Assembly: GCA_002633005.1 (NCBI GenBank)
Contig: NMRA01000304.1
Coordinates: 213,200-277,199 of the forward strand
Source of the DNA: Phoronis australis
Lineage: Eukaryota > Animalia > Phoronida
Reading direction: 5' to 3'
DNA: 64,000 bases
The position numbers were made by a program, and so were the translations under genes. The notes under the pieces are model-generated. The model worked only from the letters and a program-made list of their open reading frames with translations. It made no database searches and was not told the origin of the DNA. Positions 31,669 through 61,558 of the stretch are shown here, piece by piece. Positions within the stretch are counted from its first letter, which is position 1. Each line of letters begins with the position of its first letter.

Positions 31669-32164
31669 AGGCCGTTTCATACAAATGTCGACGTGTCGAT
31701 GTTTTGGAGAGTTGCAGTCAGTATGAAGGGTTAACTTCAGTCCTGGACTGAAGTTAACAGTGCCAGTTCACTTCACAGTAAACGGGTGGATTTAACAGCA
31801 GAGTGTTGACGCTGCGGTTTGGTATTAACAGTCAACTCCGGTCCCATTGAAGTTATCGCTAGGGGTGGCTGTAATCGTCAACAGTGTCTTTGCTAATAGT
31901 TGCTTAAATTTTGGTGGAATAATCACTAATCGAATTAGAAATAAGTTTTACGTCAATTAGCACATGTAAATGTTCCCAAACTGTCACATTAAAAAAATCT
32001 TAGCATGCACGTGGTGCATCAGCGCCACCTTGTGATTACTTCGATGATGACAGCGTGACTTCCGGTTTACTTCTATGTCCGTATGCCGGTATGAACGGTT
32101 TAGTTAACTTCCCCAGTTTTCGTCAATGCACTCAAACCGGAATTAAGTCAGTATGAAAAGGCCT
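31669..32164. mobile_element. MITE with PIF/Harbinger-like termini
   Basis: aggccgtttcatac ... gtatgaaaaggcct terminal inverted repeats; internal palindrome gttaacttcagtcctggactgaagttaac. Confidence 0.75.
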
Positions 32165-34804: not shown

Positions 34805-34974
34805 GATCTTAAAGCTGAGATTGACGCCCACCAGAAACTGTTTGAATCACTCTCGTCAACTGGCTGGCAAATTGTTGCCAATGGTGAGCCATCAGAAACT
34901 GCTCAGACCAAACAGAGGTTAGAAGAGATGAACAAAAGGTGGCAGCACCTGGAGAGGACATCCGTGGAAATCAG
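34805..34974 (+). CDS. DMD: Dystrophin exon-56 homologue (DLKAEIDAHQKLFESL...RLEEMNKRWQHLERTSVEIR); absent from ORF track
   Basis: 170 nt, phase 0 to 2; resembles human DLQGEIEAH...RLDNMNFKW...IR; donor AG|gtgagg. Confidence 0.96.
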
Positions 34975-36769
34975 GTGAGGCCATTGAGACTCTGTTATAT
35001 TTTTCATTTTCATTGATCCTTTGTTATTTCTTGTCATTTTACCATGCCTGTTACTTTGTCATGATGTTTTACATTTTTGTCTATATGTTTCTTGTTCTAT
35101 TGTCATGAAGCCAATCAAAACAGTATTTGGTATGTTTCGTCCATCTGTGCTCTGAGTTTTTGTATGAAATATTACGTTTCAAAAGTCAGGACTTTCTGAG
35201 GTACAGGGGGGGGTCATTTTTGGGCAAAATTCGTCATTTTTGAGTTTGGAAATGAGTGGTTTCTCCATACTTTCAAATGAAGCATAAGAATTCTAGTGAA
35301 GGTATTACAGGCATGTATTGGTATGGGTGAGTAGGTTGGTCTCTAAAAACCAATGCACAAATAAGAAATGCGTTGCCATGACAATCAGGAAAGTTTGAAA
35401 TGTACTAGGGAAGAAAATTGAGCAGTACCGTAAGTTATGACAAGGTTTTCACCCTCTGTAGGACGTATGGATTAAAAAATTACTCAACAACTATCATGGC
35501 AAAGACCTAAACTTTCAGAAATAGAAATAAATAGTTCACAGCAACTTCAGTGGAGACTTCCAACTTTCAAAAATATAAGTAAAATATACTGTCACTTCTG
35601 CAAAGACCTGAACTGTCAGAAATGGAAATAAAAAAATTGACGCTTTCTGCCATAGCTAAGTGTTGACAGAAGTAATTTACCACCATGTTGAATATTTATG
35701 AAGTTCAAGTATTGTTTTTCAACTATTTTATTGAAGATGCCTGTCATAAAATGGTATATTGATTCTTAGGGCCTGTATGAATGATATTTGAGTAATATTA
35801 CATACTGCCGGTACTCAGGCAAAGTGTGAAACCAATGACAATGGTTGGAAGGACAGAAATCAGCTGTAGTGCAGCACAGGTTTGGAGGTTTGCTTGCAAT
35901 TTGTCAAGGTAAATGTTCCGGCTGAACATTAAGACAAGGTTCAGTTACAGTGTGTCATGTTGAAAAACTGTACCAAAAACATCAAAATGGATTTCGACTG
36001 TGTTGGGGGAGGGACTTGGGGGGGGGCAGAGAGGATGTGAGATGAAAGTAATGGAGCATTTTCAAAAATTAATCTGTGTGGTATATAATGTTCGTCAGTC
36101 ATGGATCAAGATTGTAGATCGCAGTCATTGATTTTTTTCAATATTTTAAAGTAATTTTTAATATAAGGCGACGCAGGTGGCGTAGTTACATCGTCATTAA
36201 CACGAATAGACTAGGAGTATAGACTATCACTGCACAAAGGATTGCACATTTAACAACATTTAACAAATTGATACTAACAATAGTAAGACCAAGGTTTTCA
36301 TATCATACAAAGCAAAACCCAATGGTAGGTTTAATTTGTTTACATTCGGAAACATTTTCAGATGGTAGTCTCTGAGACAGTGAAACAAATAATTACACTG
36401 AGTAGCCATTGGGTCTGTCGGAAACAATAGGGTGGCCGGAATCATAAATACTCTAGTAATACAGCTAAATACAATGTTTGGACCCTGGTATGTAATGTCC
36501 GATCAAATTTTGTGGTGAAACCTATTCATCAGCTGTCTTTAGAATAAACCAGGAGGTCTGATTCAACTTTTCAACCCAAAAGTTTGGACAAGATCTTTTT
36601 TCTTTTGTTTACTCTAGACGTCTTGCAAAGGTGTTAGTGTGTTAGAAAGAGTTAACTATGTTTATTTGGGCAGATAATCGGCAGTAAAACATCAAACATA
36701 ATCTGTCTGTGAAATCCTACTCACCAGGGAACTTCGCTCAGTCTATTGATCATTACGGTTCATCTTACA

Positions 36770-37004
36770 CTACACAATCCAAAAGTATTCAGACAAAATG
36801 AAATGGAATTCCACATCATGACGGCTGGGGGGAAGCCAAATTCGTTGTCACTGTAGTCTTCTCTCATGACAGAGAATGAAGGGGAATCAACAGGAAAGTT
36901 AGTATGGTGCCTAAGCCATTTTGGCGCCTGAATAGTTATTAACAGTCATTTGTGCTTTTAACAGAATTAGCTGCCAAGACGGGGAAAACCATGTTATTGT
37001 ACTG
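36770..37004 (+). mobile_element. MITE family A copy 3
   Basis: ccaaaagtattcagacaaaatga...gagaatgaagg...ctaagcca...aacagaattagc, colinear with 1-253. Confidence 0.75.
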
Positions 37005-40000
37005 TATGTCAAAAATATAAGTTTCAAATAGTGTTGTTCTTGGTTGGTAGAGGGTCTACCCTGTAGTGTGTTAGTATCTCATGGTTCTAACTTGTTTTTC
37101 GATCTTGAATTTGAATATTTTTGTCTGTTGCATAACAAAAAAAAAATTGAGTAAGTGCCCTTATTGAAGATATGAAATGGAATTGATTACGTAACTGAAT
37201 TTTGTCAGGTCTTCTCTGTGTCACATGATTCCCTTATAGGTGCATGGAGAACACTCAAATTATCCGAAAGTTTATTGTTTGGCCCCCAGATGGGAACAAT
37301 ATGTATTTAGATAAGTGTGAGATTTCCCTTGAAATAAATTTCTGTCAACATTTTCAACATCAAAAAGATCACTCCGAATAAACCACAGCAAGGAACTGAG
37401 TTTTTGTTTAACTGAGTCTAGTCAGACAATTAAACATCCTAACATTAATGACAACAGTCATCCTAACATTAATGAGAACAGTCCTTAATGATTGAATACA
37501 CTACGCTTATGCATTATTAAACAATTCTCCACATGATGTTGAACTTACATTAAGGTAGTTGATGGTGACTGATATCTCTCACCTTACGCTCCAATAAACC
37601 TCAAAAGATGGGTCCTTTTTCTTTTACACGCCAAATGATCAATTGATTATGGGTATATTTTAAAGCATATCGTTAGCAATGTAAAGCATCAAATAGATGC
37701 CAATAGATGTCCTCTCACTGACAGAAGCAGGGATTATAAGGTCTGTGATCACCAAATTTGGACAATTTTCAAAAATATCATACTGTCATTTTTCAAAGGC
37801 ATCTAACATTGTTGCAATTGCCCACAAGTTTTCAAAACTTTGATTTCAGTTGTGGCACTAATCGTGAACATGGAAAACCATTTAATTTGGTCTACATATG
37901 TTTCTTGGAAAATGTGATAAAATAAAAATTCACTTTTCGACCATATTCTGTCCTATTTTGATGAGACTTTTTTACGAAAACTTTCAATACTCTAATTAAG
38001 CAGCTTTGTAAAATCACTATACAAGTCTTCAGTCATTTAGCTTACAATATGACCGATGAGTGGAATTCTGTTTTGTCAAATTTATTCATAAAATTAAAGT
38101 GTAATGAAATTTAAGCCTATTATTAGCCTAGTTTGGACTTTATAGATGTCATAAGACAACATTTGGTTAAGTTTCCACTATTTGTAAATAAGTAATCAGC
38201 TTTTGAAAAATGGAAAATGATAATTTTGGCGGTTTTGTACAAAATAAGTGGAACATCCTACTCCGCTCTTCCAATAGGTTGGGAGCTCATTTGTAAGATA
38301 TTTGCCAGATTGAAGAAAAAATGTTTCAAGCCACGCACATAATGTAGCCATTCAGAGGAGGGTGAATAAGCTTTACCGGTATTTCAATTTAGGCATTATC
38401 TTAAAAACTTGGTGCTCTGGCACTGTTGAATTATCCAAGTAATCAAAAACAATCAAAACCTTCAGAAGCTGACACACGTCTTTAAAATGTAATTGAGTAT
38501 TTTTGGACAACGGTCTTAAAAATAGATTTTTCAGCTACAATTTCCATAAACCATCTGGCCTATAACACCTGGTATAGTTTTCTAATGGCTATCTTGTATG
38601 TAACTGCTATTGGCATGTTTGGGTGAATAGTTGAAGTTGGGGTTGTTGGTCTGTTATGATTTGGTCTGTGTTATGCCGTTGGAACCATGATCATTGCTAT
38701 GCTGAGTTGTTTTTGGCAAGCAAATGTGACTCAGAAATGGGTCCTGTTCACTGAGATATTCAGGCTTCTGGATGACATGGTGATTTTTTTTATTTTCGTA
38801 TTGAAGTGTTTGTATTTGGTAAATGTACTTGTCATAATTTATTTTTATTAAATCGGTATGGTTTCCACTCTGCAGGAACATTAAACTTAGTTTGAAGCAC
38901 ATATTTGAGGCTAGGGTGGTAACGTTCATGCATAGCGTGAGACTATAGTGAAAATGAGACTTGGTAGAATCAATGTTATGATGACCAGCACGATGACAGA
39001 TTAAGTTATGGTATATTATTCTTGACACAATACTCCTGAGAAAATGGCCTCTTTTCACTGCGAAAACTGAGTGTCGTGGCTCAAAAATGTCAATACTGTC
39101 ATAAAAGTAACTGTATTTAGATCCACCCATTAATACCTGCATGCCAGATTTTGTTCTAATCTGTGACCTCCACATTGCAATATATATTCGGTGCTGTCGT
39201 GGAATAAAAGTTTTGCCATTGTTGCTCACTTAACCAGTTCATCTTGTGACCGATGACCTGCTATCCCTAGAGATCAAAATTCATTTCTTTGGAACTAAAC
39301 TGCATATAAAAAGAGTTTGGTATCATGTACTGAATTCCGTAGGCTATCTCGTCTATGAAGGATGTCAAAAGCGAGATATGTGCAGTTCGTTATGGTAACA
39401 GAATTGCCAAGTACGATATTTAATATGCAGTAACAGACCTTGTATCATACACCTGTGCTACACTGTCACATTAAATATTCTCTTCCAGGTAATGTATTCA
39501 GAAATGTAGCATCTTACCCCGCTCTGGTCAGTGTTGTGTCACACGGAAGTTTTATGTGTCTGGTCACACCGAGTTCATTTATTAGTCGGAAAAATTAACT
39601 GTAGGTTTTATTATGCTACAGCGACAGTTCCACCTGTACAGCACGCCATCTGGTGGGCTAATAGTATTTTAGTTTGACATTTTTTGTGTAAAAATGATAC
39701 CTTGTCATAAAATTGCTTTTAAAATTTGAGTGTTTGCAGCTGCGCAGAATGCCTTGGCTGTCATTTTGTGCAAAGTTGGTGAAGAAACACAGCAAAAACA
39801 ACTAACAAATTCATTTATTTATTTACCTGGTTTGACGTGTAAACTGTCCTTAAACAATATTTGGTAGACATTAATTACCATTGTCAAGGCCTTTGAAAAA
39901 GAGAGACAATGTGAAAATATTCCATTTTGTAAGTTGTGATTGATTAAATGTGAGTTAAAAAATGTTGCCTAATACATTTAAGTGTAATTTTTGCCATTTT

Positions 40001-42038
40001 GCAGTAATTGGATCTATATAGCAAACTGCAGTCAGAGGTTTTCTCAACCTGCTCATTGAGGATTCCATAACCTAAGGGGGTGAATACCTTGATAAAAATA
40101 CCAACTGTTGACTATTTTTTCTCACCGATGTAATGTTCTTTGGCATCACCATGGATTATCGTTTCATCCAAATTTCGGTACATCTGTTAGGTGTGCTTTC
40201 AAAAACTCTTGTCTTTCTTTGGCTTTTCTTTCGTTTTATAAAGACTCGGGTCTCTCTGTAGGATAGCACTTTAATTGGTGATTTTATTTTGATTGTCAGT
40301 TAATAAATGAAGGTTTGGTTTTGCATGAGGATAATAGAGTGGGTGTTACGTATGTATTGTAGTTTTCCTAATGAGAGTCCAGTTATCAGTGGCTGTAAAA
40401 AAATTGAATATTTTATTTGAGTTATATATAATAATATGCAGCTTTATGTTACTAATCATGCTAGTTATGAAAGAAATTTTTTCCTAAACTTTGTTCTTTT
40501 TGAGAAATTCAACGGTTGAATTTCACTTGTTGGTCATATCGTGTGTTAAATTGAATGGTGTTTGTCACATGTTTCATGCAGTACTTGAGTATTTGTGTTG
40601 CTGGAGATATAAAACATCCTGGCATATTTAATCGTTTTTCATTGAGGGTCTGCATTGAATGTCAGGGAACCTTGTTTAAGTCCAGTTCATCTGTTTTATA
40701 AATATAAGTTCACTGCCCATAGGCGTTTCCTTGATGTTGGTATTCATAACTGGTTAAACAGTGCTCAAGCAGGGTAAGTTATTGACCATACGCTCTCTGA
40801 TCCTGAATAGTTTACATTTAGTAATTCCTGTGATGAGCTGAGTACCAAATGCTCATCAGAACAGGAAAAATTTTTATCCAAAATAGTCTTGACCCAATGA
40901 TCAACTTGACCCGTTGGTCGGGAATTATTTATAAATCATCTGTCAGCAGTTGACGTTGATAAATGTGATAGTTATGCAAGTGCAATCGATGAATCTCTTG
41001 TACTTAATACCATGCATTCTGAATCTTAAGTAGTTTGAGTATCTGAATTTTCGGAGACATTTCGCAATTATTCTGTGGTTACCGTGTAGGATTCTGTTTA
41101 TCGTCAGCATCTTATATCAGCCAGGTTGAGTAATTTACAAAAACTTCCTCGCTCAAATGTGAAAGTGTTTACAACACAGTGATTCAACAACTTATCAGTC
41201 AAACCAGCTGTCACTTTGAGCCCGCCCTAATTCCTAATCGGGTCGGTTACCTGGTAAGAACTTCTAGCCATGAATCTTCTGTGGCTGACATCTTAGTCTG
41301 CTGTATGATTTGCGAAATCTTGAATTTGGTGTGTGGGCTGGATGCTGGAGAATTGGAAATAACCCTACTGAAGTGGCTCGGCAGAACTGATATAGGTAGT
41401 AAGACGGGAAGTCTGCCAAGAGCTCGGAGCAAACCTGACTTGTGGTCCTAGGCAGTGATGGCCATGTTTTCCTTACCACCATGAGGGCTCTCTGTGTGTT
41501 TTTTATTGTTGCTGGAATCAGATAGACAGATATCGTTATCTGCTAACACAGCAGAAAGCATCTCGATTTAACCTCTTCAAAGAAATTGAAAGCCAATTCT
41601 GAAACAATGGAATACAGTGACATAGACTAGGAAGTCATCTCTAGTGTGTCGGTTTATCTGATTTCTTTGCTAAAAAGCATTACAACAGACATGTGATCCG
41701 TTTATCTCAACTTGTTAATTAAGTCCGTTTTCTCATGTATGAGGTCATGAGACTGTCTTGTTGTTTTCAAAAACAAGTCGAGCGAAAGGTTCTGTGGAGG
41801 CATTTTGACAAAGACGACCACGGAAGCTGGATGTGCTAATTGTGTTGACTTCGGAAGTAGATGTGTAACACTTGTAGACTTGATATCGAATTAACTCGCC
41901 ACAGCTTTAACAAGGGAATACGCTTTATTCGATTAACTCCATTGCCAGCCTGCTTTACTCACCGTCCTCATCGGATTACGTATTTATGACATTTATTGAT
42001 ATTTGCCCGAGTCGGCTTTAGTTGTATCCCCAACAATA

Positions 42039-44215
42039 ATGAAGTGTGCTTTGGTTGAGATCCCAATGCACAACGGAGAATACTTCCACCCATTGAAAAA
42101 CGGTTATCTACAGGTCCCGATGGAGGAGCGGCATAAGTACCCAGTCTCACCTTGGAATCGTAGGAAGGTGAGCTTTGCCGACGAGGTAGCGTCGAATCCA
42201 GTCAGGCAAAAAAAGAAAGACAGCATATTGAAGCGTACGTCATACGACAGCGGTTCAGCCACGAGCTCGGAATCCGATTCAGACAAGAGTTCCATTGACA
42301 GTGGACATAGCAGTCGCATCAGTTGTACAAGCTCTACACATAGCATCAATGGTAATGGTGGGATATTAAAGAGTCGACTGACAGTAGATCAGGTGAATGA
42401 TCACCTGAGGAACCAGGTGTTCTTTGACGACTTGAGAAAGAGAATATCAGAAAAGGTGACCTTAAATGATGATTTGCCCGATGAGTTACCTGAAAGTACT
42501 TTGCACACATGTCAGAAGTCTGTCCGAAGTCATGGTTGTTGTGATTTTGATCATAAACAGCTGAAGGACTCAGTAAAGTCTAGTACAAGACCACAAGTCA
42601 GGCAGGGCTCTGAGCCTCTTTTGTTAATGAATACATCAAGTGCTGTTGATGGTAATTCATTTCATGGTGCATCAAACTGTGACTCCTATGTTCAAACAAT
42701 TGACAAGCAGAAAATTGACAGGTCAAGTTTATACCTACCGCTGCGGACATCATCATCATCCCTCAAACGGCTGTCTGCACCAGCAGGGCTTGTTGATCTG
42801 TCAGTTAATGATATTTACAACGAGAGCTTAGAGTTTGCTATCAAAAACGAGACAGGTTTGAAAAACACACCAAGAGTTTCAACCCCTTTTCCAAAATCCA
42901 CAGAAATTCAGTGGGAAACATTAGATGACAGATGGCAGTGCCAAGACACCATCAGTAAGTTGGCAAAAGACTGGACAAATTGTCGTAGGAAATCGGTGAC
43001 AGGGTATTTGCAGGAAGCCGACTTGATGGACAAAATGGTGGATAGTTCGTCTCCAAGTTCCATCCTAGAAAGACCTGAAAGTGTCTTGAGTACTGAGGAG
43101 TATGACAATGTAAAACCACTTGGCAGTTACACAACCAATGAGAATAAAAAGTCTCGTAATTGCAATCCTGTGATGAAAAATGACTGTCGAAGTGATAGGC
43201 TTACATCTTCATGCGGTAAAAATGAGCTGAGTGAGGCTGAGCGGCAGGCCAGCTATAATACTATACTAGAATCTATTAGTGAGAATGAATTCTGTGGGGA
43301 CAGAATGCAATTAGGGAAAAGTAATAGCAATGACAAATCTAATGTTGGAAAACTAGGCAATGCTCACAATCTTGGAACATCTGGCATGCTGAATGTAGAT
43401 GGTACAAATGGCATTAAACAAGACTGTAGTGACTCCAGTAGACATTATAATCATTCATATGGGTTACCTCTGTTCTCTGTGCAATGCTTAACTGAAAGAG
43501 CCACTGAATCATTTGATGGTGATGGTAGGATGGGACAAACGGCTGCGTGTCAACCAAGGTGGGTAGCTGAGGATGGGTGCTGTCAAAGTTCCCCTCCACT
43601 TAACACATCAAGTGGTGGAGTATTGTACAAACAAACACAAGATGGAGTTCCCATTATCCATCAACCTGGCCCATTACAGCCTGCAAACAATGGTGGGTCA
43701 CAGTCTGGTGGCAATCAAGCCAATGGAATTCAGGACAATGTTTTGAAAGATGGTGAAGCCCATGACAGGGTGGATAATGATATCAACAACCTGTCTGGTG
43801 AAGTTGTGTCCAGTCCTCCATCAGCATTACATCCTACCACAACCACCACCAACGAAAGGTGTATGGATGAGAGGCTGACCATTGAGGACGTTTTGGAAAA
43901 GCTTGCAGTATTTTCTCCCGGCGTGGGCGATAACGGTTTGAGTTTTGCCCTGCCAGGTGTTCCTGTGGGCATGGAGTGTGGAAGCGAAAGTTCTGTAATG
44001 ATTAGTGATCATCACAGTGTTCCGTCCATTGGTGGCAGTGACTGTGTTCCATCTATTAATCATGGTGGAAATATAGAAGAGATTCATCGTCACTGCAATG
44101 ATAGCGGTATTGATGAGCCTATGGGGAACGGCAGGGATGAAGGCTCATCCGCTGATCAATGGAACCGATTGATTAACATGTTGAGTGGATTGGCCGACTC
44201 AGTGGGAAGACCACC
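42039..44215 (+). CDS. DMD: Giant candidate alternative first exon (about 726 aa, Ser/Asp/Asn-rich, likely disordered), splices in frame to 46895
   Basis: Only long ORF in the window; first ATG at 42039 (ataATG) after an in-frame TGA at 41997; ends CCA CC|gtaagc, phase 2, matching the exon at 46895; no transposon or enzyme motifs recognised. Confidence 0.8.
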
Positions 44216-46894
44216 GTAAGCATTCCTATCCTCCTCTATCATATACATAATGTTTCAGACTTGTACATTTTTAAATTTGTCTGCTGTTGGCTGTTCTGTC
44301 ACTTTCTCTTTGATTACCTCTTAGTAATTTCTTATTTGTAATTTTTGTGTTCGTGGGTACTTAAGTTTGATGGTGTAAAGCCTTAGGATAAGGCTGTGCT
44401 ACTCAACAAAAATGTGTAACTCAGGGCAAAACCATTCTCATTCATGTGTTGCTCATTTCATTGTCATTACATGGGATTTTGGTTCATGTCTCATGTAATA
44501 ATCATCATTGCTGCCAACGTACATAGGGAAGTTGTATTGTTGCGATTATTTCCGTACTTGAGTGTCATTTTTTCCTGGTGGTTTTGAGTCATCACTTGAC
44601 CTTTATATCAGATCTGATTTCAATCTTTCACCAGAATCAACTGCAGTGTTCCAAAGGTAACATTTTAGGAAATAATTTTACACATTGAGTGAACACTTAC
44701 TGTTGTAAACAAGCTTGTTCAACACCATCTTCCTCAATTTCTGTGTGCTGTGCTAAATAAAATGATACCAAATTGTGTGCAATGGGTTTCTTTCCAAATC
44801 CAACCCAATCCTTGTCTTTTTCTAAAGTAATTTTATGGCACTAGAAATGTTTTTGTGTGTGTAAAACCAGGAAGTTGTATGTATAGAAGATTAAATTTCT
44901 TACCTCCTCTGTGACTATTCACCAATGAATTCACTACACACTATATTTAAATGATCAATCAACAAAATGTTCAATTTTTTTGTATAATAAAACCTGGTCC
45001 ACTTTTTGATTGGCTAATAACAGGAGCTTCACTTGTATCTAAAAAACAGTGGCTAACCACAGAGCTTCAAAGTTTGATGGGATCACCTGAGTAGTTCAAT
45101 ATTCCAAAAAATGGTTCCCACAAGAAATCCATTGCATAAGCTCAAAAGAATACTTAACCCTGTTTTGGGGATTTCAATCAATCTTCATTCTGTCATATAC
45201 TAATGCACCATTGGCGGTCCACTTAAGTGATAAAAGCAGTTTTTATTTAAAAACTGGTATTTTCGTTTAGGATATTTGGGTATGGTTCTTGACAGGTGGT
45301 CTTTCCCTACAGCTGTCACAGGTAACTCGCCTAAAGCACACGTCACGCTTGCACATTTAGCGGACTTTGCAAAGAATTTTCAACTTTACTCGAAACATCT
45401 GAGGGTTGTTGGGGGTTACAGAGCATTATTTTGTTTCAGAGAACTCAGGATGGGAACGTTGTCTGTATCTGTAATAGGCCAGAACCGGGAGGTTTCATGC
45501 ACTTTTAACAGTATTATGTACATGAAGATGTACAGAAACAGACAAACATTGTATTGAACGAGCATAGGTGGGAAGATGGTTTCTAATGTTACACTGTATG
45601 TAAAAATAAACACGACTGCAGACTAAACGAATAATATGGATGGGACTGGAGGTCTATTGTCCTTGTCTTCTCATACCTTGTATTTTCCTGCTAATGCTAT
45701 CAGCTAGCATGTTTGAGTGGACCACAGGGTTAAACAAACAGTCCACCTATCAAAACATTGGTTGTTTTTTGTTTAACGAGAATCAGCTGCTAATTAGTTG
45801 GAATCTCTTGACTATGGAGTAGCCCACAACTAATTAGTTACTTTTTGCTTTAAGAAATCTAGTGTCTATCCAATTCTGTATTCTGGTCTTCTTATTTTAT
45901 AGTTTATGCTCGTTCTTATTTTTGCGAAAGTTTTTTTTTTGATTATTCTGAAAAAATGGTCTTTGTGGTTCCTGGTGGATTTTGTGTTTGGATTCTAGGG
46001 ATTTCATTTCCTGATACGTATTGATAACGGTCACAGTTTAAAATCAGTGAAGCAACCCTTTGCCTTAAGAAAATCTTAATAAGTCATACAATAGATGTCT
46101 CTCGGTATGTCTAAGAGAGAGTTGGAGGGAGAGACAGACAGAGAGAGAGAGGGAGACAGAATTTTCAAGTGGCTCCAAAGCAACTCTGTGGAACATAAGT
46201 GGCAATTAATTATTGATCTCAATTAAGGAATCTTGATTAGCAGCCAATTGAAGTGTCATTATCTTTAAGTTACGGCAATAACTATATAGAGTGATTGACT
46301 AACTTCAAACCTTGGTAAATCACTTGAATGCCAAATTTAAGTGTTATAAATTTAGTTATAAATTCTTGACCGATGATTTTTTATTAATTGTGAAAATAGG
46401 TGTATCCTCCTTTTTATAAGATTACTTTCATTCTTCCAAAATATGTAAACCTCTGAGACTCAAACAGTTACTTTCATTAATATAAAAGTTACACGAAGCA
46501 GCGGACATTTCCTTCTATATGCCAGTGATCTTTTATCGTGTATTGCCAGGAAGGGGGCGAGGCCTGTGGTTCACACCAAAAACTTAACCGATGGACCTCT
46601 TTCAAAAGGCTTTGATTAGATTGAGAAGAGGCTCTAGTTTCTGGCTTAACACAGAGCTCACACAGAGTCTGTGTTATATGTTAGGAACAAGAAAATGAGA
46701 TAAAAGCTTGTTGTTTATTTCTCTTTGAGAAGTGTTTGCAGAAACAACACCTTTCAGTCATGGTTGTTAACAATGAGGCATTATGGGACTTAACAGTCTT
46801 TGCTGTTCATTGGATTCTAAAGATTCTGGAATGTTCTTTGCTGAAGTTTCACTAGGACATCTGCATGAACTAGAAATGTTTATTTCTCTTCTAG

Positions 46895-47051
46895 GAGTCG
46901 TTTAGAGCAGAATAGTGATCAGTGGATTGAGTTACAAAACAGACTGTGTGAGCTCATTCAGTGGACCACTGCCAAGGAAGAGGAACTGTTCAGACAACAG
47001 CCAATAGGGGGCGATCTGACAGCCATCAGGAAACAGAATAGTGATGTGTTG
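46895..47051 (+). CDS. DMD: Dystrophin exon-57 homologue (SRLEQNSDQWIELQNRLCELIQW...QQPIGGDLTAIRKQN); absent from ORF track
   Basis: 157 nt, phase 2 to 0, same as human exon 57; PIGGD motif. Confidence 0.97.
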
Positions 47052-47885: not shown

Positions 47886-47985
47886 GCGCTCAAAGCTGAA
47901 CTTGAAGAGAAAAGACCAGTTGTGGAACAACAGCTACAATTGGGCCAGGCTTACATTGAGGGAAGAAGGAAAGAAGGCTCTGAAG
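47886..47985 (+). CDS. DMD: Dystrophin exon-58 homologue (ALKAELEEKRPVVEQQLQLGQAYIEGRRKEGSE)
   Basis: tttatag acceptor, donor AAG|gtcagt; 100 nt, phase 0 to 1. Confidence 0.92.
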
Positions 47986-50284
47986 GTCAGTTGAACTATG
48001 GTATCTGTGTGATTGCTGAGTGCAGAATGAATGACATGCTAAAAGTTTGCATACAAAATTTTTCTAGTCACTTGCAGGGTTCCTGGATTTTGAAAACCAG
48101 TTTTTATGCCTATTATTCAGTGAGGGAGTCTCGTTTCTCCAAATCCTGACCCCTCTTTAGTAAATATTGCACAAAATACGTATCCATGTCCTGGCGCCTT
48201 ATTCTGTTTACATTCAGTAATGGATGGTAATGACTCATCGCTCTTTTGACAAAATCCTTACTGTAGAAAAATGTTGTTGTCTTATTAGCTTTCTGTTAAC
48301 TTCCCTCTGACGGACAGCTACTTTGACAGGCAATTTTACTTTCTCTACCGTTTTGATTAGGGATTCAGCAACATTTTGTTCAATTTCTTCTGTTGTGTAC
48401 TCTGGAGGTTATGTGCTGGTGTCTCAGTGCAGCTGGTTTCTCTTTTATGAAAAGTGATTTAAAGAAAAGCTTGTGCCTTGCTATTGTTAGCGCACAACAG
48501 TTTAGAAGTAATTTATGAAAACTATCGGGGTCACAAGCAATTATGTATATTTTCAGAGATCTGTGCTTTTGTTGAAGTTTGTTAAAATAATTTTCCAAAA
48601 ATAATTGTGTGAAGCATTAAACGAAAATTTTGACTAAAGTCTGATGTCATTTAATATGAAACAGACCCTGTGTTTTGTTCTAGCACAGGTTTAATGGTAA
48701 ACTTGATATTCACTAGGGGGTGCTGATGAAAAAAGGTCCGTCTTTTTAACTTCTGAAATAGATTAAGAGCAGGAGCGATCATTTGATAAGCGTACCACGT
48801 GAATATTTGATTTCTAGCGATCCTTTGGGTAGTCCCCTTGTTGCACTAGTGCCACCTAGTGTACTTCAAGTCACTCACTGTACACATTCAGAGTGAAAAG
48901 TGATGGAGGCAACACTGTTGGACATTTTCGTAAAATCTGCCTGAAGGCTATTTTAATACATAGTAACAGTAAATTAAGTAGCTATTTTAATACATAGTAA
49001 CTGTAAATTAAGCAATCTTAATAGTACAGTTATCTGGTATACTCATCCAGATTTTGACCCAGAGTAACTGAATAGAGAAACTCAAAAATCGGGCAGTGTG
49101 AAGCTAAGCATGGTTGTTTAAAAACGATACAGCATTGAGCATTAACGCAACTATTGTTAATCCCCTGGAAGTTATCTTTATGTCAGTCATTTCACATCCA
49201 GGAACCTAATCGAATTGTGAACAGTGACCTTTTCTTTGTGGTGGCATTCACAAACTTAAGGGCGCTTTTAAGGAACTGCGTACCGTACTGTGTGCATAAG
49301 GGGTGGTCGTATAACCAAAAATTATTATCATTGCAATGAGCCTACATGAGCGGCCTGCATACGTCTGGTACAATGTGTACCAGACCATCTGCAATTATTT
49401 TTTTAATCAAAAATGGGCTTTCAAAAAGTGTATCGTTGAAAATCAGGGGTGGGTGTTAAACCTAAAATACTTTATAATCAGTATCTGTTAATGCACAATT
49501 TTTTAATTTTTCCAGTCTTTTTATCGGTGTTGGCGGTCTCTTTTTTGTTAGTTTCTTTTTTCCATGTAGCTGTGATTACCAGAGTTCTCAGGGAACGTTT
49601 ACTTCCACAAACCTAGAATGCAAACTATAAACCAGGTTTCTCAGTCATACAAACTAAATGTCAAACAATCGCACACCATGATAGAACAGGATAATCATCT
49701 TCAAACAGATTGTGTTGGTCATTTGGTAATTTGTATAAAGCTGTGTCAAAAAGCCATCCATTTTGAGCTATGTTGGTCTACCTTTGTATTGTTTGCCTGT
49801 GATTTCTCAGTTCCTTTCAATGGTAGCAGTCAATTGCTACCATTGACAAAGAAAATTTCGAAATGAGTTTTGTTGAGATAATCACCTTATTTCACAATTA
49901 TAATGTTGTGAGTGAGAGGAAAATCCTTTTGAGCTTCCTTCTTTGAGGTCTCCATTAGTGCGCTTCCTCCAGGCTTCAGAAAGGCACTTAAATAATTTTT
50001 CTCAGTGGGGAAGCGTTGCCTAGGTGACGCGTTCACTAGTCTTCTGTGTAATTATAAAGTTAGTGTTTAATACCATAAATCTAAAAAGGTTATTTCAGTC
50101 TGATTTGTTCTGAGATTTGCTTGATGTTTGAAATTTTATGCACTCTTGTTTGATGAATTTGATGCAATACGGACCTGAGATCACCTGCGTGTTTGATGCT
50201 GCGGTTATAAAACGAGTTATTTTTGTAAACAATCTTACAGAGTAAAGGACGTAAATTTTAAGAATGAGAGTGGTGAATTTTCAG

Positions 50285-50430
50285 GTATCAATGTTGAAGA
50301 CGAAATGGAGGTTGAGGCGAGAAAAATAGTGCAAGACATTTGTAGCAACGTGAGTCAGCTTAATCAACTGTGGGCAGACGTCAACAAAAACACTGGCGAC
50401 TGGCAAAACAAGATTGATGACACGATGAAG
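50285..50430 (+). CDS. DMD: Dystrophin exon, 5' half of human exon 59 (INVEDEMEVEARKIVQ...LNQLW...DWQNKIDDTMK)
   Basis: ttttcag acceptor, donor AAG|gtgagt; 146 nt, phase 1 to 0; DWQxKID motif. Confidence 0.92.
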
Positions 50431-51670
50431 GTGAGTTTTTTGTGAAAGTTTGTTTTTGCTACTCCCTCTGTGGCTTAAGAGTTGGGGTACAGTGACCTGT
50501 CGTGTCGGAAACAGCATTGTTCGAATGTCGGTGGCTATCTTTGAATACTTGATGTAAAGCATTATGTTGATTGTCTGACAATTAAGTTAAATGTTATGGT
50601 ACTGAGGCTGTCTAATAGATTAAACCTTTTAATGGATATTATCATACCCTGTAGTGAGCTCACAGTCCGCTTAAGTAGTCGAAGGACTTTCAATGGCAGT
50701 GGAAGCGTTGGAATGTAAATGGTTTATAATATCTTCATTTTTTAATAGTTTGTAACGTGATGCTAGAGGTCACCATTACCTAGGATGCGGTACATCGCGT
50801 TTTCTGTTTCGGTTAGACACTGAAAATCGATTCACCAGATTTAACTCACCTTGATATTTGCTGTAGAAGTCACCAGTCTAATTATGCATTCCTAAGTTAA
50901 TTTGCTATTTCGTGAGTTGAAAGTAGCACTTCTATGTATTTCCAAATTTACCATTCCTTAGAGATAAGAGTAAGGCTGTTTAATTAAGTTCTTCATGCTA
51001 GTCCTCCACGTAAACTGTATTGGCATATTCCCATCTATTTGTTTGAGTTAGGATGTTAATATATTCTCTGTAACCTACAGGGAGTAGTGATTCTTCTCTG
51101 TTTAACTAGTAAATAACGGAGTCTCATTCTGTGATATTGACAATTTAGCTACCGTTAAATGCCTCTTGAGAGCCCGTCTTTCTGTTCAGATATACTTCGC
51201 TAATTGTAAAATTTAATTTATTGATAGCTTGACTCCAGGGGTCTCTGCTTCCTTATTTATTGAATGGTTTTAGTTCTTGCTTGTCGTATCAATTGTTGTA
51301 CTGAAAAAATTCTGTCCGGTCGTAATTAGGCGGAGTACAGTAGTCATTTGTTCTTTGACCATCGCCAGCCTGTCATTTGCAGTGATGGGTCAAACCTGCA
51401 CAAAAGCGAGGTCTATTTTTTGTCTGGATCATGGACAGGCTCAATGGATGTATGATGTATGGTTTGCCATTTGTATCATTTTTGCACCACCAAAGTAGAC
51501 AAGTTAGCTGAGTTTTTAAAAGCTAGAAATTAGTCATTCTATGAATGTCGTCTGTCTGCTTCTTCAGTCAGACCACTGCTGTTTTGTGTGCTTGATATTG
51601 TTACATAAATAAGCATGTCAGCTTAAAAGTATTGTCTGCCTTATGACCGCATGACTGTGCTACTTTGCAG

Positions 51671-51805
51671 AAAATGCGCCAATTTCACCAAGGCATGGAG
51701 GATGTTCTGGAGAAACTGCACAATGCTGAAAGTAGAAAGCAGAAGTGGAAAACAGTTGGCGATATTATTCTGGATAATCTTCAGACAGAAATTGAGCAAA
51801 CAAAG
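51671..51805 (+). CDS. DMD: Dystrophin exon, 3' half of human exon 59 (KMRQFHQGME...KWKTVGDIILDNLQTEIEQTK)
   Basis: tttgcag and AAG|gtaagt sites; 135 nt, phase 0 to 0; WxxVGD motif of the last repeat. Confidence 0.96.
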
Positions 51806-51970
51806 GTAAGTAAGGTTTTTCAAAGTCTGAATCTCCCTCATTATTATGCTAGCTGGAGGTATGTGGCTGGGAATGTGATGCTGTGTTTTTGCAAGGACAA
51901 AATATTGCAACCTACCTAAATTTTGATGATTCACATTCACAATTAATCTTAAAGCACTTGCTGCTTACAG

Positions 51971-52397
51971 TCCTTCCAAAAAGACCTGGTCCCTGTGCAG
52001 GAACAGGTGGACCTGGTCAACGATTCCGCCGCCCAGTTCACTCTGATGGACATTCAGCTGTCTCCGGCCAATCTTGACCGGGTGGAGGACATCAACACAC
52101 GGTGGAAGGCTCTGCGCACGTCCGTCGACGACCGCCTACGCCATCTTCAGGAGGCTCTTCGCGAGTATGGCCCTGCATCCCAACACTACTTGGCGGGCTC
52201 AGTCGAGCCACCGTGGGAGCGCTCCGTGGGCGGCAACAAGGTGCCGTATTACATGAATCACCAGAAGCAGACAACACATTGGGACCACCCGCAGATGACG
52301 CAACTGCTCAAGTCAATACTCTCCGACCTGAACGATGTCAGGTTCTCGGCGTATCGCACTGCCATGAAGGTCAGGGCAGTGCAGAAGAAACTGAGTT
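51971..52397 (+). CDS. DMD: Dystrophin exon equivalent to human exons 60-64 (last repeat, hinge 4, WW domain, start of EF-hand region)
   Basis: 427 nt, phase 0 to 1; [47 protein letters not shown]. Confidence 0.98.
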
Positions 52398-52656
52398 GTG
52401 AGTATCTTTTCAAGTTTGCTATGTCAGTAATCCGTAATGGTACTTTGCATTGATATGCAGGCGTACACATAAAGTACTCGGTCATTTATTGAACTGGCTT
52501 AGCTACACCATCAGAACGTTAGACTGCAACCTCAAATGTTGCATGTTCGATTCCGTGCAGAGGCTGGTCTTGGAAAATCACTTTTCTTCCCAATATTCCT
52601 TTAAAATTTGGGCTGCTGGAATGTTTTGTCTTAATTGTTCTCGCGTGTTATTCTAG

Positions 52657-52861
52657 TGGATTTGGTGAGTCTGAACAACGCCATCGCTGTCTTCAACCAG
52701 CACAATCTTGAGGGACAGAACGACCGACTAATGGATGTTCCAGAGATTGTTGCCTGCCTTTCGGCCTTGTTTCGCATAGTTGAAGACGACCACCCCAACT
52801 TCATCAACGCTCCACTGTGTATAGATCTTACCCTCAACTGGCTTCTGAATGTTTATGACAT
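52657..52861 (+). CDS. DMD: Dystrophin exon-65 homologue, EF-hand region (...PLCIDLTLNWLLNVYD)
   Basis: ttctag and |gtaagt sites; 205 nt, phase 1 to 2. Confidence 0.97.
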
Positions 52862-53841
52862 GTAAGTACACTGTAAGACCACATACGGTTTTCCTTCCAT
52901 GACTGCTACTTCTGTTAACAGCAAAAATGACTGGTAATAACCATAAAGGCAGCAAAATTCTAATTACATAACGGCTCAGCCACCTTTCTTGTTAATTCTT
53001 CTTTATTCTGATCGTGAATTCACCTTCTGCCGACCCATCATAACCCGGGAACTCCGGCTCGTTTTGTCTGTATTCTTTTGACTTGTACTGTGGATGAAAT
53101 TCAGTGGACTGACTAATGGTTTTTGTTTCCTGGTGGTTTTAGCTGATATCTTTATTAAATGCATAAACACAACTTGAGAAATTAATGAAATTGTTCTTGA
53201 AATTCCTAAAAATACAGGCATATTCTAAGACGGAACTCTCTCCACAATAATGTTATTTTATGTAACTTGAATAGTCGTAAAATTTAGATATTGCTGTCAG
53301 CTAACTTAATTGATTTACTTGTAACAAAATATTAGGCTCGAAGTAAGGAGGGTGTCATTGTCACGTGTTCCAAACTGAATCTCTTCTCGTAATTTAGCCA
53401 AAAAATGTGACGCACAACTGGAGTTTGATTTTGTCAGATTTCTCAGCAATTATTATAGACTGAGGAAATTTTACTGAGTGTGTAATCAATCTGCACAGTT
53501 TGTACTGTACATCAGTAAAAAAAAAATAACACTTGGAAGATTGTTAAAAGCCTTTGAAAATATAGGAAAGTGACAGTTTTTGCAATGATTGCTTTCGTGC
53601 AAAATAGCTGAAAATTACTGCTGTGAAAACCTGGAAATTTACCGCTCAATATAGCTCTCATCTTTGTGCCTAATGTGTCCAGGTCAAAGTAGGACGAAAG
53701 TTGACTGACAGATTAGGTGTAATATGCACTGTAGTCTGTAATGAATGTGATCGATCATTCTTACAACTCTGGCTGATCACAAATGTTGTCCGCAGCTACC
53801 ATCTGATTAGCCTCAATTGCCCATTGGACTTTAATTTGTAG

Positions 53842-53927
53842 GTGTCGGAGTGGTCAGATACGGGTACTCTCCTTTAAAGTTGGCGTGGTCTGTTTATGTA
53901 TGGCTCACCTGGAAGATAAATATAGAT
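53842..53927 (+). CDS. DMD: Dystrophin exon-66 homologue ([28 protein letters not shown])
   Basis: 86 nt, phase 2 to 1, same as human exon 66. Confidence 0.97.
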
Positions 53928-55241
53928 GTAAGTTTGTGTTTTAATGACATGCTTTCTTATAATTCCACTTGTTTAGAAAGTGGAAATAAAGTGACATCAC
54001 TAGAGTAGGAAATTTTTGTAAATTGCAGTTCTGGATGTGTTTGCGTTTTTTTATTGGCAATTCATAAAAAATCATTTTGATACCGATCAGTTGTGGCGGC
54101 CATTTTGTAGGTGCAGTACCTGAAATTAAAAATTATCTTGAAAATTTTGGCAGTGTTTGGTCTATCTGTTCTGTGCAATGAACAAGATGTAACTGAATTG
54201 GGTTCAGTTATTTGTAATAAACAGAAGTGGACTCAGGATGCAGTGACATCTACAGATCCTGAAATCATGGAGATCTGTCCTGGTGTAAGGTCTTGCCACT
54301 GTAACCAACATGCATACCCTTGTCACACTGCAAAAACGGCGTTCAGACATAAACCAGTGGCGAGAGGTCACTTTGACATATGTTGCCCATTACGAGAATA
54401 ATGAAGTTGCACTCCCATAGGGAGTGATAAATAAATATTTCTGAATATTTGGAGACATAACGCGCTGTACAGGGCCTGTATTGCTGAGTAGTCTGCACTT
54501 GTAACTCATAGCCATTATCTATATGACGAATGTAACTGTTTGGTGAAAATGACTAAGTAAACCCAACAATAATTACGAGTCTTCAAAATCAGGGCATCAG
54601 TCGTCCACTGCAGATACTGACCTGTAGCCTAGTAGAAATTAAAAATGGAGTCAGAAACTGGCCTCGTGTAGACCTGCTTGCAACTGACCTCTATTACCGC
54701 CATTCTTACCATCTTTATACTCCCGTCCAGCTTTTTGTCAAAATTCTCCGACCAGATTGCCCAATTCATCCTAGTTTTGGGTACGCCTTCTACACAAATA
54801 TTCCTCTTGTTGCCACTATCAATAATTCACCAGTAATTATTAAAAGTGAAATAATTTTGCTCTGCAAAATTCTCTTCAATTTTATATGTAGTCAGTCAAA
54901 TCATTTGGTCCAATTTGCTCAGTTTCATTGAAATGATGAAATCTATGATGACCAACTGACCACAGGATGTGTTTACCACGTTTATCGAGTGCAATTTTGT
55001 TGATTAATTTTGGTTTTATTTTACCAAATGAGAAGCTACCGACTGTGTAGCTCAGTTTGTGGAACAGTTAGACCGTTGATTGAAATAGGAAAATGACTCT
55101 GCAGGTACTTGAAGAGATTGTTAAATAGTTGTACTTGAGAAATTGAGTAACTTGTGCATGCAGTGTCACTTTGGCAAACAAACATTTGTAATTGAAAAAT
55201 TGACTTATTGCAAAATAATTGTAGCAGTTGTAGATGCTTAA

Positions 55242-55629
55242 GGGTGTGTAGGACCCTAGTATGATGGCCAGTTTTGGAACATCGTTCCTTGGAAATACCG
55301 ATCAGATTCGTATGAAACTCAATACAATGCTTTATACACTGTTTTTGAAAAGGCTGCTGGGAATTTAAAATGTCCCACTTTTGTGTGAGGGTCTATCAAA
55401 AATGTGACTGATGATTTTCATGAAAAAAGCTGAAGTTCTTCGTTGCTAAATTTTCCTAAATCCATGGTAACGATACTCAATTAATGGCAGATCAATAAAA
55501 AGTTGCAAATCAAATGCTACTGGCCTTCTCAGTTCTTTCAGAAAATACATAATTTTATTAAACATCTATAGTTTTGTAGATATTTGGTTAAAAATTTATG
55601 CAGACTTGTCTATTAGGTCCCACGTACCG
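55242..55629. mobile_element. Possible TTAA-flanked non-autonomous DNA transposon remnant
   Basis: ttaa-gggtgtgtaggacc ... ggtcccacgtaccg-ttag imperfect inverted ends. Confidence 0.45.
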
Positions 55630-56012
55630 TTAGCCAAGTGTGCCTGAGTCAATAGGTCAGTGAGTGAGTCCTAAGTTCTCTTGGAGACCTGTTTTCCTAT
55701 TGTATCAATTACCTTTTACTGTGCTTAAAATTCGATTGGTTGAAATTGATAAAAATAAAGTCAAACTCGCTCTAAATTGACCTGAAAAGACAGGACCATA
55801 GTGAAACCTAATGTTTTGCTTGTGTGCTTATTTCAATAGTATGAACGGATTGTATTACCAAAGTCACATGCAGTACTGAAGTCGCCAATGTTCTACCTGT
55901 CGCGTAATTTTTTAAGACTATTTGAAGTCTTACAATACCCAGGACCTTCGAACTGCTTTCAAGTTCAACGTTAGGATTTGAATTCTCAATGCCATTATTT
56001 ATCTATTTCCAG

Positions 56013-56170
56013 ACCTGTTCCGCCTTATTGCCGATGCTCAAGGATTTGCCGACCAAAGAAAGCTAGGTTTACTTCTCCATGACTGTGTTCTCATTCCACG
56101 ACAACTGGGCGAGGTGGCCGCTTTCGGAGGAACTAATATTGAGCCTAGTGTCCGCAGCTGTTTTGAGAAG
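56013..56170 (+). CDS. DMD: Dystrophin exon-67 homologue ([52 protein letters not shown])
   Basis: 158 nt, phase 1 to 0, same as human exon 67. Confidence 0.98.
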
Positions 56171-56369
56171 GTGAGAGAGTAATTAGACTCGCTGAGATAG
56201 GTCAGCAATAGGCAAGACACTATTCTAAAATATTTTTTGACCAGACAGTGACTTTCTAGTTGTCTGCAGTTTATCATTTGTTTCATTGTTATGTAATTTG
56301 CACAGTACCTTGTTTAAATACAATTTTGCCTCAATGATAACCTATGATAATGATAATAATAAAAATGTC

Positions 56370-56520
56370 TGGTTGGATATCTGCATTCTGCCAGTGGAGC
56401 TGATGGATCAGTGAACTAGAGCATATGGAGGGGTTGCAGAAGGTCGTAGGTTTGAACCCCGGTCAAGACAGAAATCTTTTCAGACTTGCAATTACTTGGG
56501 CTTGGGTGTGACCTCATTTG
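56370..56520 (+). mobile_element. tRNA-related interspersed repeat family C, plus-strand copy
   Basis: Degenerate B-box ggtttgaaccc; similar to 16400-16525. Confidence 0.55.
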
Positions 56521-57394
56521 GCTCTTCAGAGAATCTTGTCTATGTAATAAACATTATGGATGATAACCATGATAATCATAATGATAGTAGTGATAACATG
56601 CTTCTTATATCATGGTTATGTTTCTGAGTGTAGTTGGTTTGAAATTGCTTTGCTTAGTGAAACGGTGAAGTGGTCTGATAATGTGTTCTCAGTCGTTAAA
56701 ATACTTTGTAAACACAAGTCTCTTGTTAGCAGTGTCTTTTTTAATTTCATTATTGGTAACGTAGTTATATTTTATGCTAATATTAAAAATGTCAGGGTAT
56801 TATTCTTTCTATGATATTGGTAATGACAACTGATATCTATTAAAATAATTATGTAGTCATAATAACTGTTAACACCATTAATACTAGTACGCATATGTGG
56901 ACCAATCCTCGGGGCAATATTAGGTTATGTGAACCTCTGCAGAGCAATGCTGCTAATGCTCTCTCAAGGTCCATATAACTTGACATCCCCTTGGAATCTG
57001 TCTATATTTGTTTCATTATACGTCCATTGATGTTTCTTTCCTCCAATTTCTTTATCTATTAGATTGGCATTTTCCCTGCTTTGTTGTTCTGCCATTGTCT
57101 GATCACTGACTTTGTTTACTGGGTTAGGGTTTCAAGGTTTTTGCAGCCTTTAATTGGCCAGTTCATTCACGAGTAGTAACTTCTTTTGTCTGAGTTGCTT
57201 GAAGAGCGATATTCCATAGCTAACGTGGCAACATTCACATCGCAATGGATGTCACCGTACAGTGTTTTAGCGTATTTGAGTACAGTAATATTTGTAGCTG
57301 TATATTTGTGCTGTCTAGTTCTAGGTCATAGGTAGCACATTGTAAAACTTCTAAAAATGAAAGTTTAAGAATGGGAAACAATTTTTGCTTTCAG

Positions 57395-57561
57395 GCTAAC
57401 AGTGGAAATGAAATCCAGGCCAAGCACTTCATTGACTGGATGAAGTTGGAGCCTCAGTCGATGGTGTGGTTACCAGTCATGCATCGGTACGCAGCCTCAG
57501 AGACGGCCAAGCATCAAGCCAAGTGCAATATTTGTAAAGTATTCCCCATCGTCGGGCTCAG
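57395..57561 (+). CDS. DMD: Dystrophin exon-68 homologue ([27 protein letters not shown]; start of ZZ)
   Basis: 167 nt, phase 0 to 2, same as human exon 68. Confidence 0.98.
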
Positions 57562-57605
57562 GTAAAGTACTTGGAATGGCTTGTTTTTAGTTATGACTCT
57601 TAAGC

Positions 57606-57759
57606 TTATGTATGACTTATGACTTATGTATGACTTATGTATGACTTATGACTTATGTATGACTTATGACTTATGTCTGACTTATGACTTATGTATGACT
57701 TATGTATGACTTATGACTTATGTATGACTTATGACTTATGTATGACTTTATTGACTTAT
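57606..57759. repeat. Compound minisatellite of ttatgac and ttatgtatgac units
   Basis: Direct reading: interleaved 7-bp and 11-bp units. Confidence 0.95.
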
Positions 57760-58568
57760 CTGTGTAATTAGCCAAATATCTACAAAGTTATAGATTTCAA
57801 TCCTGCCTCAAAAGAGTATATTTTTAAAGTAGTTATAAACCTGTAGAATTTTGATTTTTGACTTCTCAGTTTTTACTAATCTGTCTTTAATTGGGTCATT
57901 TTACTGTATTTTTAATGAAATTTGCCTGAAATGAAAACTACATTGATAACAGAACAACATGTAAATAACATGACCAAATTTTGTTCTAAATTATCATTTC
58001 GTTGTACGTAACTTTTGAGTTTTATCACAGATATAGCAAAAGCTCTGTTTTTGATATCCTCTCTCGTGCAGCTGCAACATTTTATGCAAAAATTCTTAGG
58101 AGTGTTGTGGAGAGCATTGCATACAGTTGAGTATCTGAATGTTTCATGTGAACTAATCGGCCATTTGTTAGATCTAATGTTACCAAGTTAGCCTAATTTG
58201 GACATTTTTCTGGGGTCCTTTAGTCTAATTTTGCTCCTTCGTTAGTTGAAGAAAACTTTTGTATTATAATGATGTGTCGTGTATAACTTTTTAATTAAAT
58301 GGCACTACTAAGTTGTGAAAATAACAATAATGACAACGAAAATATTTATCTAAAATAATTATAGCAATTTATAACTAGTATTTCATTGATACAAATTATT
58401 TAGAGCTACATTCGTTTTTGGTGCAGGTGTCCCCAGAATTAGTTTATAGTAATAATGATACTGATAACAATAATAATTATGATAATAATGATGAGAATTT
58501 GTGGTAGTAAAGATAGCAAAAATGAAAGCAATTATAAAAATGATAAGCATGCATATCTCTTTCTGCAG

Positions 58569-58680
58569 GTATCGCAGTCTGCGTCACTTCAACTTCAATC
58601 TATGCCAGAACTGTTTCCTGTCCGGTCGAACATGTAAAGGTCACAAATTGACCCACCCCATGCAAGAGTACTGCACAACA
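58569..58680 (+). CDS. DMD: Dystrophin exon-69 homologue, ZZ domain ([37 protein letters not shown])
   Basis: 112 nt, phase 2 to 0, same as human exon 69. Confidence 0.98.
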
Positions 58681-59384
58681 GTGAGTATTGATTGGATGGC
58701 ACTGTGACTCGTTTCACAGCACTTCCTAATCAATAAACGCCGACGACATGTCGATTTATTGACTGCAGGTTGTTGTCCTGCCGTGATTTGATTAACTCGC
58801 TGCTATGAGCAATTCTTGTTCAATTACTCAAGCAGTTACTGAGTTCATTGTCTGACAAACCCAAGGTCGTGTTTTTCCTTTAGATGAATTGAAGATTTCA
58901 TGGTTCCGTATTAAAGAACGTTGTGTCTTCCTGTTCAATGTTTTTTGTCAATTGAACCTGAAATTGACAAGAATTTATCAAAAACTATTAATAATAACTT
59001 TCCAAGATGTTACGTTTTAATTTAAAAATTTTTTGTATTTTATTTGTATTATTTTTAACTCTTATTGTTGATATAATTATAATCATAACTTTTTATTATT
59101 ATTTGGGTTATTTTTGTTATTACTGTTATGATTGTAGAATTTTTCCGATTACAATCAGTTCTCGAAGTGATTTTGAAGGCAACATAGCCCATGTTACCAT
59201 ACTTCGCCTCGTTTAACTTAGAATATACCTCACTGAATGCAGGTATTCATGAAGTGATTGCCAATAGAACCATTCCGTTAGTTCCCAGTGCTGAAGTCAC
59301 TGCTCCGGAAAAAATTAAATTAGTGGAATAGCATTTTGATATCAAAATCAATAACACTCGCAATGCACTCCTGAATACTTCCAG

Positions 59385-59521
59385 ACAACCTCAGGAGAAG
59401 ACGTGCGAGATTTCGGTCGAGTCTTCAAAAACAAGTTCAAATCAAAACGCTACTTTAAGAAGCACCCTCGCCTTGGCTATCTACCTGTACAAAGTGTGCT
59501 GGAGGGAGACAGCATTGAAAG
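59385..59521 (+). CDS. DMD: Dystrophin exon-70 homologue ([45 protein letters not shown])
   Basis: 137 nt, phase 0 to 2, same as human exon 70. Confidence 0.98.
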
Positions 59522-61456: not shown

Positions 61457-61558
61457 TCCGCCCACATCGCCCGATCAGCAGCGGCAACAGCCAAGCCCTG
61501 CCCGTCAGGTGACCTCCACGCCGGATATGCATGCCAAACTGGAGAGATATGCCAACAG
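61457..61558 (+). CDS. DMD: Dystrophin exon-72-like (PPTSPDQQRQQPSPARQVTSTPDMHAKLERYANR)
   Basis: tttgcag and AG|gtattt sites; 102 nt, phase 2 to 2; resembles human DTHSRIEHYASR (syntrophin-binding region). Confidence 0.92.

Follow-up and report, generated by a model that had tools for sequence, protein, structure and literature searches.

In this work, we analysed a window of 64,000 nucleotides (64 kb) from the genome of Phoronis australis and found, in the intron between the dystrophin exons 56 and 57, an open reading frame that is likely to be an internal-promoter first exon. The short dystrophin that it would encode has a head of 726 residues, predicted to be disordered, which may dock protein phosphatase 1 (PP1). 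Short dystrophins lack the actin link.

The host gene and its giant open frame

The host gene was identified by profile search as dystrophin. On the + strand, its exons encode, in order, spectrin repeats, WW, EF-hands and ZZ, and both this domain order and the conserved exon pattern are those of the dystrophin/utrophin family. The open frame lies on the strand of the gene, and the exons on either side of it (34805..34974 and 46895..47051, both +) align with exons 56 and 57 of relatives, the latter as the sequence-only reading had it; the numbers 56 and 57, which are those of the human gene, agree with PMC1790709 and PMC5664101. Exon 56 belongs to the long isoform and is absent from the short one, whereas exon 57, with the start of spectrin repeat 23, is the first shared exon and is followed by ten more (47886..59521, +) that encode spectrin repeats, WW, EF-hands and ZZ, the gene continuing beyond. 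The shared part is 55-62% identical to its 20 best relatives, with the annelid Ridgeia the closest (62%) among the relatives fetched, and it groups with spiralians (88/88, which is under the starred level of the tree) in a careful tree of 17 chosen proteins. Thus, this is probably the dystrophin gene of a spiralian, as judged from its sequence.

The stop-to-stop frame runs from 42000 to 44219 on the + strand and comprises 739 codons; in an ORF scan of the window, the next longest of the eight frames of at least 120 aa reaches 191, so that the giant frame is, as first described, the only long one in 64 kb. The computed chance of a 739-codon open frame is ~3e-17 for the window, and the remaining five frames over the ORF carry 26-82 stops. 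The ORF proper (42039-44219) reads from the ATG at 42039 through 726 aa; the in-frame stop that had been noted 5' of the ATG is a TGA at 41997-41999, and the terminal TAA sits within the donor GTAAGC that follows 44215. The coding part of the giant exon (42039..44215, +) consists of 725 codons plus 2 nt and encodes a unique head of 726 aa (79 kDa, pI 5.4). Its donor is in phase 2, as is the donor of exon 56 at 34974, and both lead to the acceptor at 46895, the match between the giant exon and this acceptor being the one that the initial reading had seen. Joined in this way, the 12 exons of the window form a single open frame of 1335 aa with no stop and with no actin-binding or upstream rod sequence; 6 of its 11 junctions, as far as 52657, are supported by reads, and the five later ones were set from GT-AG and homology.

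Several features of the window lie outside the giant exon. A single 427-nt exon (51971-52397) combines WW in full with the tail of the last spectrin repeat and the start of the EF-hands; in the human gene, this region is distributed among several exons, with the Dp71 promoter in an intron inside WW (PMC1790709). Since the Phoronis exon holds the whole WW, there is no intron here for a Dp71-type first exon. Near-identical tandem duplications at 5031-5982, 14133-15604 and 27251-27891 (~470, 820 and 320 nt, respectively) each flank one of the three Ns of the window and are probably assembly artefacts at contig joins. A compound minisatellite with 7- and 11-nt units (57576-57781) is located directly 3' of a ZZ-region exon, and short open stretches at 13824-13955 and 61377-61568 may represent further exons or exon extensions.

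Transcription and splicing

The RNA data for Phoronis australis come from two studies, one providing three stranded RNA-seq runs (X2-X4), of each of which 18-19% was read, and the other a contig set (X1) that is RNA by guess; a joint was accepted with at least three reads or a contig. The predicted splice 44215>46895 (GT..AG; intron 44216..46894, +) appears in 4/4 runs from both studies, with one contig in X1 and 2, 2 and 1 reads in X2, X3 and X4, and the spliced isoform exists as RNA. The canonical splice 34974>46895 is represented by one contig and by 10, 8 and 3 reads (21 reads), the giant exon supplying 5 of the 26 junction reads into exon 57 (95% CI 7-39%). As in short isoforms made from internal promoters, a unique exon is joined in frame to the C-terminal exons that the isoforms have in common.

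Coverage is on the sense strand only and extends from ~41036-41350, that is, from 700-1000 nt 5' of the ATG, to 44215, being unbroken over the coding part in the four runs and zero in 38706-40336 and 44298-44530. These bounds, together with the joint, exclude intron retention and favour a first exon of ~3 kb. The 5' UTR leader (41036..42038, +) is drawn from sense reads beginning in the bin 41036-41268 (X3) and from the X1 contigs 41348-41677 and 41811-42455, the latter spanning both the in-frame stop and the ATG; its 5' limit is approximate (~41036-41350, possibly 40760, where a small contig, 40760-40922, has a depth of 3.7). The loose end of an X1 contig corresponds to the exon-57 start. On the 5' side of the giant exon, there are no loose ends and no joint among those listed for the four runs, with the reservation that, at the low depth (0.1-5.7 per bin), a rare upstream joint would go unnoticed. 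The giant exon is likely the first exon, and the preference for a first exon over a cassette exon expressed in the sequence-only reading is supported inasmuch as coverage crosses the in-frame stop and no upstream joint is seen.

Matches to TATA, GC-box and MEF2-like elements occur near 40.9-41.2 kb, lack a chance control and are not counted as evidence; Rfam yielded no match in 35000-47000. Short dispersed repeats at 36779-36959, 38193-38230, 38443-38476, 45282-45445 and 52898-52987 attract many loose-ended reads from transcripts elsewhere.

The head and its terminal helix

The head is predicted to be disordered: in a single-sequence structure model, the mean pLDDT is 35.7, with 703 of the 726 residues below 50, although this model was built without an alignment and such models are often poor. 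Of the isoform layout that had been proposed from the letters, the spliced RNA, the open frame, the shared spectrin, WW, EF-hand and ZZ parts and the lack of an actin-binding domain have been recovered, and the disorder stands as a prediction. The head has no Pfam match (best E 0.15), no homologue by word search among 7978 longer candidates, and no match by phmmer against 1.84 billion representatives, against PDB sequences, against viral contigs or by exact look-up. The matches in the atlas are all below 0.9 and are to be taken as leads only. With the whole head as query, they are to exophilin-5, ITPR-interacting and APC-like disordered proteins, and a query with residues 25-145 has a fungal 'GLC7-interacting protein 1' cluster as its second match (0.77).

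The sole trace of dystrophin in the head is at its very end, where residues 703-718 (44145..44192, +) resemble the start of exon 57, i.e., the first helix of spectrin repeat 23, with a profile score of 8.9 bits. This score is reached by 1 of 5000 shuffles and is the second-best match in the six frames of the window, in a post hoc comparison; with the window's own exon 57 alone, the resemblance attains only 14% significance. The structure model has a helix at residues 704-719, and insect heads likewise end in a conserved stretch ahead of the donor. The 3' end of the giant exon may be a decayed, old and partial, duplicate of the exon-57 start.

Alternative readings of the transcript

The giant exon could be internal rather than first, either following a small non-coding upstream first exon, with the same protein as the product, or being a cassette that follows exon 56 via an acceptor within the ORF, which would interrupt the rod of full-length dystrophin with a disordered segment. 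Its donor has the same phase as the exon-56 donor, which would allow a cassette in frame, and the read depth is low. The initial argument against a cassette was that the AGs near the ORF start (42011, 42021 and 42113) are not in phase 2; this is correct for these three, but 21 phase-2 AGs are present within 42164-42590, and therefore the argument from AG phase is insufficient on its own. The transcripts speak more clearly: no joint from 34974 to the giant exon is found in the four runs as against the 21 reads for 34974>46895, coverage continues 5' of these AGs without a step and passes over the in-frame stop, with no 5' loose ends, and no AG in 40900-41450 has a pyrimidine share of at least 0.67, a value reached by 8 of 12 real acceptors. 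We consider an internal exon unlikely. Even more remote is the notion that the ORF belongs to a separate nested gene or derives from a transposon, with the splice into exon 57 as leakage. The head indeed has no dystrophin homology save the 16 residues at its end, but the junction reads largely refute this possibility: coverage does not pass the donor (zero in 44298-44530), and splicing removes the stop codon. Furthermore, a transposon match, named at the outset as an observation that would speak against an exon, was found neither in Pfam, PDB, the representatives and the viral contigs nor among the repeats listed for the window (the 20 largest of 25 direct and 10 inverted), and the reads are one-stranded and free of loose ends, unlike those of the transcribed repeats nearby.

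A different question is whether the head is translated, given that the mRNA might be real and the head mostly a long untranslated leader, with a short Dp116/DRP2-like protein made from a later ATG, as SuDp98 uses an internal start (PMC1790709). The leader holds 15 upstream ATGs, and the codon usage of the head is intron-like: GC3 is 0.41 vs 0.57 in other exons, and the codon log-ratio of -0.08 per codon is nearer to intron than to the other exons, whose score is in-sample. A signal of purifying selection in the head falls short of significance, the 22 alleles listed there comprising 7 synonymous and 15 non-synonymous ones, with pN/pS of 0.58-0.83 (P 0.17-0.42), which is not significantly different from neutral. 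On the other side, a 739-codon frame cannot persist by chance, the ORF is in frame with exon 57, the 22 listed alleles include no indel or nonsense change, and all three alleles in codons 1-139 are synonymous (P 0.016, post hoc). The pattern of alleles and codons suits a loosely constrained disordered region, without proving translation, and we regard an untranslated head as improbable, slightly more so than an internal exon. Our preferred reading remains that of a translated first exon.

A putative cluster of PP1-docking motifs

The head contains three pattern matches to PP1-docking motifs, all on the + strand: the RVxF-type motif RRKVSF at residues 41-46 (RVxF proper 42-46; 42159..42176), a SILK motif at residues 62-65 (42222..42233) and a second, SILK-type motif, GILK, at residues 108-111 (42360..42371). 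The motifs were spotted by eye before testing, so the statistics are post hoc; 14 patterns were scanned. The definition of SILK was that of PMC9813921. An RVxF match alone appears in 13-17% of shuffles, whereas RVxF with one SILK within 70 aa appears in 0.14-0.26% of 40000 shuffles under three shuffle schemes, and RVxF with two SILK is absent from all 40000 shuffles of each scheme, while a span of 110 aa gives 4 of 20000. By the motif scan and the model, the head thus combines RVxF and SILK in a predicted disordered region, the sequence pattern of a PP1-targeting subunit. No RVxF match was found in the insect heads scanned (32 proteins, P0074 left out), and a literature search that covered subscription papers thinly found no RVxF motif of a dystrophin.

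RVxF and SILK are docking motifs for PP1, and phosphorylation of RV[S/T]F blocks the binding (PMC8786283, PMC9813921, PMC3989773 and PMC3410773). Both orders of the two motifs occur (PMC3410773), and RVxF ahead of a SILK-type motif is the arrangement solved in RRP1B (PMC9813921). Like the Phoronis head, RRP1B and Rif1 have RVxF and a SILK-type motif close together in a disordered region, with a phosphorylatable serine in RV[S/T]F (PMC9813921, PMC3989773, PMC3410773, PMC8786283). The spacing between RVxF and SILK is 20 and 66 residues in Phoronis and 41 in RRP1B; PP1 binding is shown for RRP1B and Rif1 and only predicted for the Phoronis head, and no sequence homology is implied. Docking of PP1 by the head cluster is a tentative proposal, to which we give somewhat less than even credence.

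Comparison with known short dystrophins

The promoters of Dp116, G-utrophin, SuDp98 and Dp205 are located in the orthologue of intron 55 (PMC1790709, Jin et al.), and Dp186, Dp205 and Dp117 have unique N-termini with 4, 2 and 0 repeats, respectively (PMC2840664). The probable Phoronis first exon is not in intron 55 but one intron further 3', and does not splice to exon 56. Intron 55 of the window (28808-34804), the conserved promoter site elsewhere, carries no long ORF on the sense strand; sense reads are few and lie at 33668-34334 (depth 0.5, X2 only), and, with reads examined over the last 1.8 kb, this intron may still contain a small first exon. The vertebrate isoforms Dp116 and G-utrophin (Up113) are made from an internal promoter, as the Phoronis isoform probably is, and, like it, comprise repeats 23-24, WW, EF and ZZ, but the first exon of Dp116 is in intron 55, with 91 bp and 10-24 aa, and that of G-utrophin, also in intron 55, encodes 48 aa (PMC5664101); the Phoronis exon, in intron 56, has more than 2.9 kb and 726 aa. 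DRP2 and the sea urchin SuDp98, too, amount to little more than repeats 23-24 with the C-terminal domains (PMC1790709); DRP2, however, is a separate gene, SuDp98 arises from intron 55 with an internal start, and neither has a long unique head.

The closest parallel is in insects. The database isoforms P0108 (X16) of D. virilis, P0026 (X6) of Megalopta and P0119 (X5) of Aedes, which from their layout we infer to correspond to Drosophila Dp205, have heads of 670-900 aa joined to exon 56. The head of P0108 (898 aa) is also annotated alone, as the 915-aa ORF P0234 that runs past the donor into the intron, and the head of P0026 is likewise annotated alone, as P0247. Since P0234 and P0247 read through the donor, these two heads are single giant exons, as in Phoronis australis. 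These two first exons are annotated as separate genes under the names 'uncharacterized protein' and 'alpha-protein kinase 1-like'. The Dp205-type isoforms share with the Phoronis one a large, single-exon, low-complexity head with a helix-like end, followed by two full repeats, WW, EF and ZZ, and no actin-binding domain (PMC2840664); for Phoronis, two Spectrin stretches were counted in an annelid model that starts at exon 57 and was used as a proxy. In contrast, the insect exons join exon 56 by a phase-0 donor, whereas the Phoronis exon joins exon 57 in phase 2, without the end of repeat 22, and the heads have no sequence similarity. Consequently, the claim of a novel giant N-terminus has to be divided: the head sequence is unique and the intron is another one, but the layout is known. 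The sequences indicate that the giant-first-exon design had its precedent in insects and that intron 56, phase 2 and the head sequence are what differs here; the putative PP1-docking cluster in the head is new.

None of the 227 dystrophin-family proteins compared (120 + 107) aligned with the head at E <0.9; they were taken from the best 120 of 131 and of 1253 matches and shorter than 2000 aa, a sampling by which spiralian isoforms are thinly represented. Among these 227, an exon-56 match before exon 57 is lacking only in DRP2s, models with short starts, weak matches and the 'hypothetical' insect models P0074 (102 aa) and P0106 (406 aa), which are taken as annotated. The Lamellibrachia protein P0230, longer than the Ridgeia model, was considered as a possible bearer of a head and rejected, since ordinary rod sequence precedes exon 57. 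A literature search found no intron-56 dystrophin promoter, in a sample thin in subscription papers and without the original Dp205 and SuDp98 reports.

A proposed scenario and its implications

Under the proposed scenario, transcription would, very probably, start near 41.0-41.3 kb, and the head would, with nearly as much confidence, be translated from the ATG at 42039 or from one of the two in-frame ATGs that follow, at 42066 and 42120. The full-length protein would have ~1650 aa, to judge by an annelid model of 940 aa with its start at exon 57. The shared part of the family binds dystroglycan, syntrophin and dystrobrevin (PMC5664101, PMC10293626), and, by analogy with Dp116-type isoforms, the shared WW-EF-ZZ and C-terminal part would anchor the protein at the dystroglycan complex. 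Much more tentatively, the head could be envisaged as taking the place of the actin link and serving as a scaffold that bears motifs, with RVxF-SILK-GILK targeting PP1 to the complex and phosphorylation of the RVSF serine as the switch. Beyond that, we can only speculate that spiralians evolved the intron-56 promoter independently of the ancient intron-55 one and that the giant first exon makes the short dystrophin a PP1-targeting subunit, anchored by dystroglycan, in which the head delivers the phosphatase to the complex at the membrane; taken as a whole, this extension is rather doubtful.

For annotation, it matters that heads of this kind are readily mistaken for orphan genes of their own, which was the case in D. 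virilis and Megalopta. The giant-first-exon design probably occurs outside insects as well, in another intron, and this points to repeated invention rather than to one conserved promoter. If the proposed docking is true, the cluster of three PP1-docking motifs would make a dystrophin a phosphatase scaffold.
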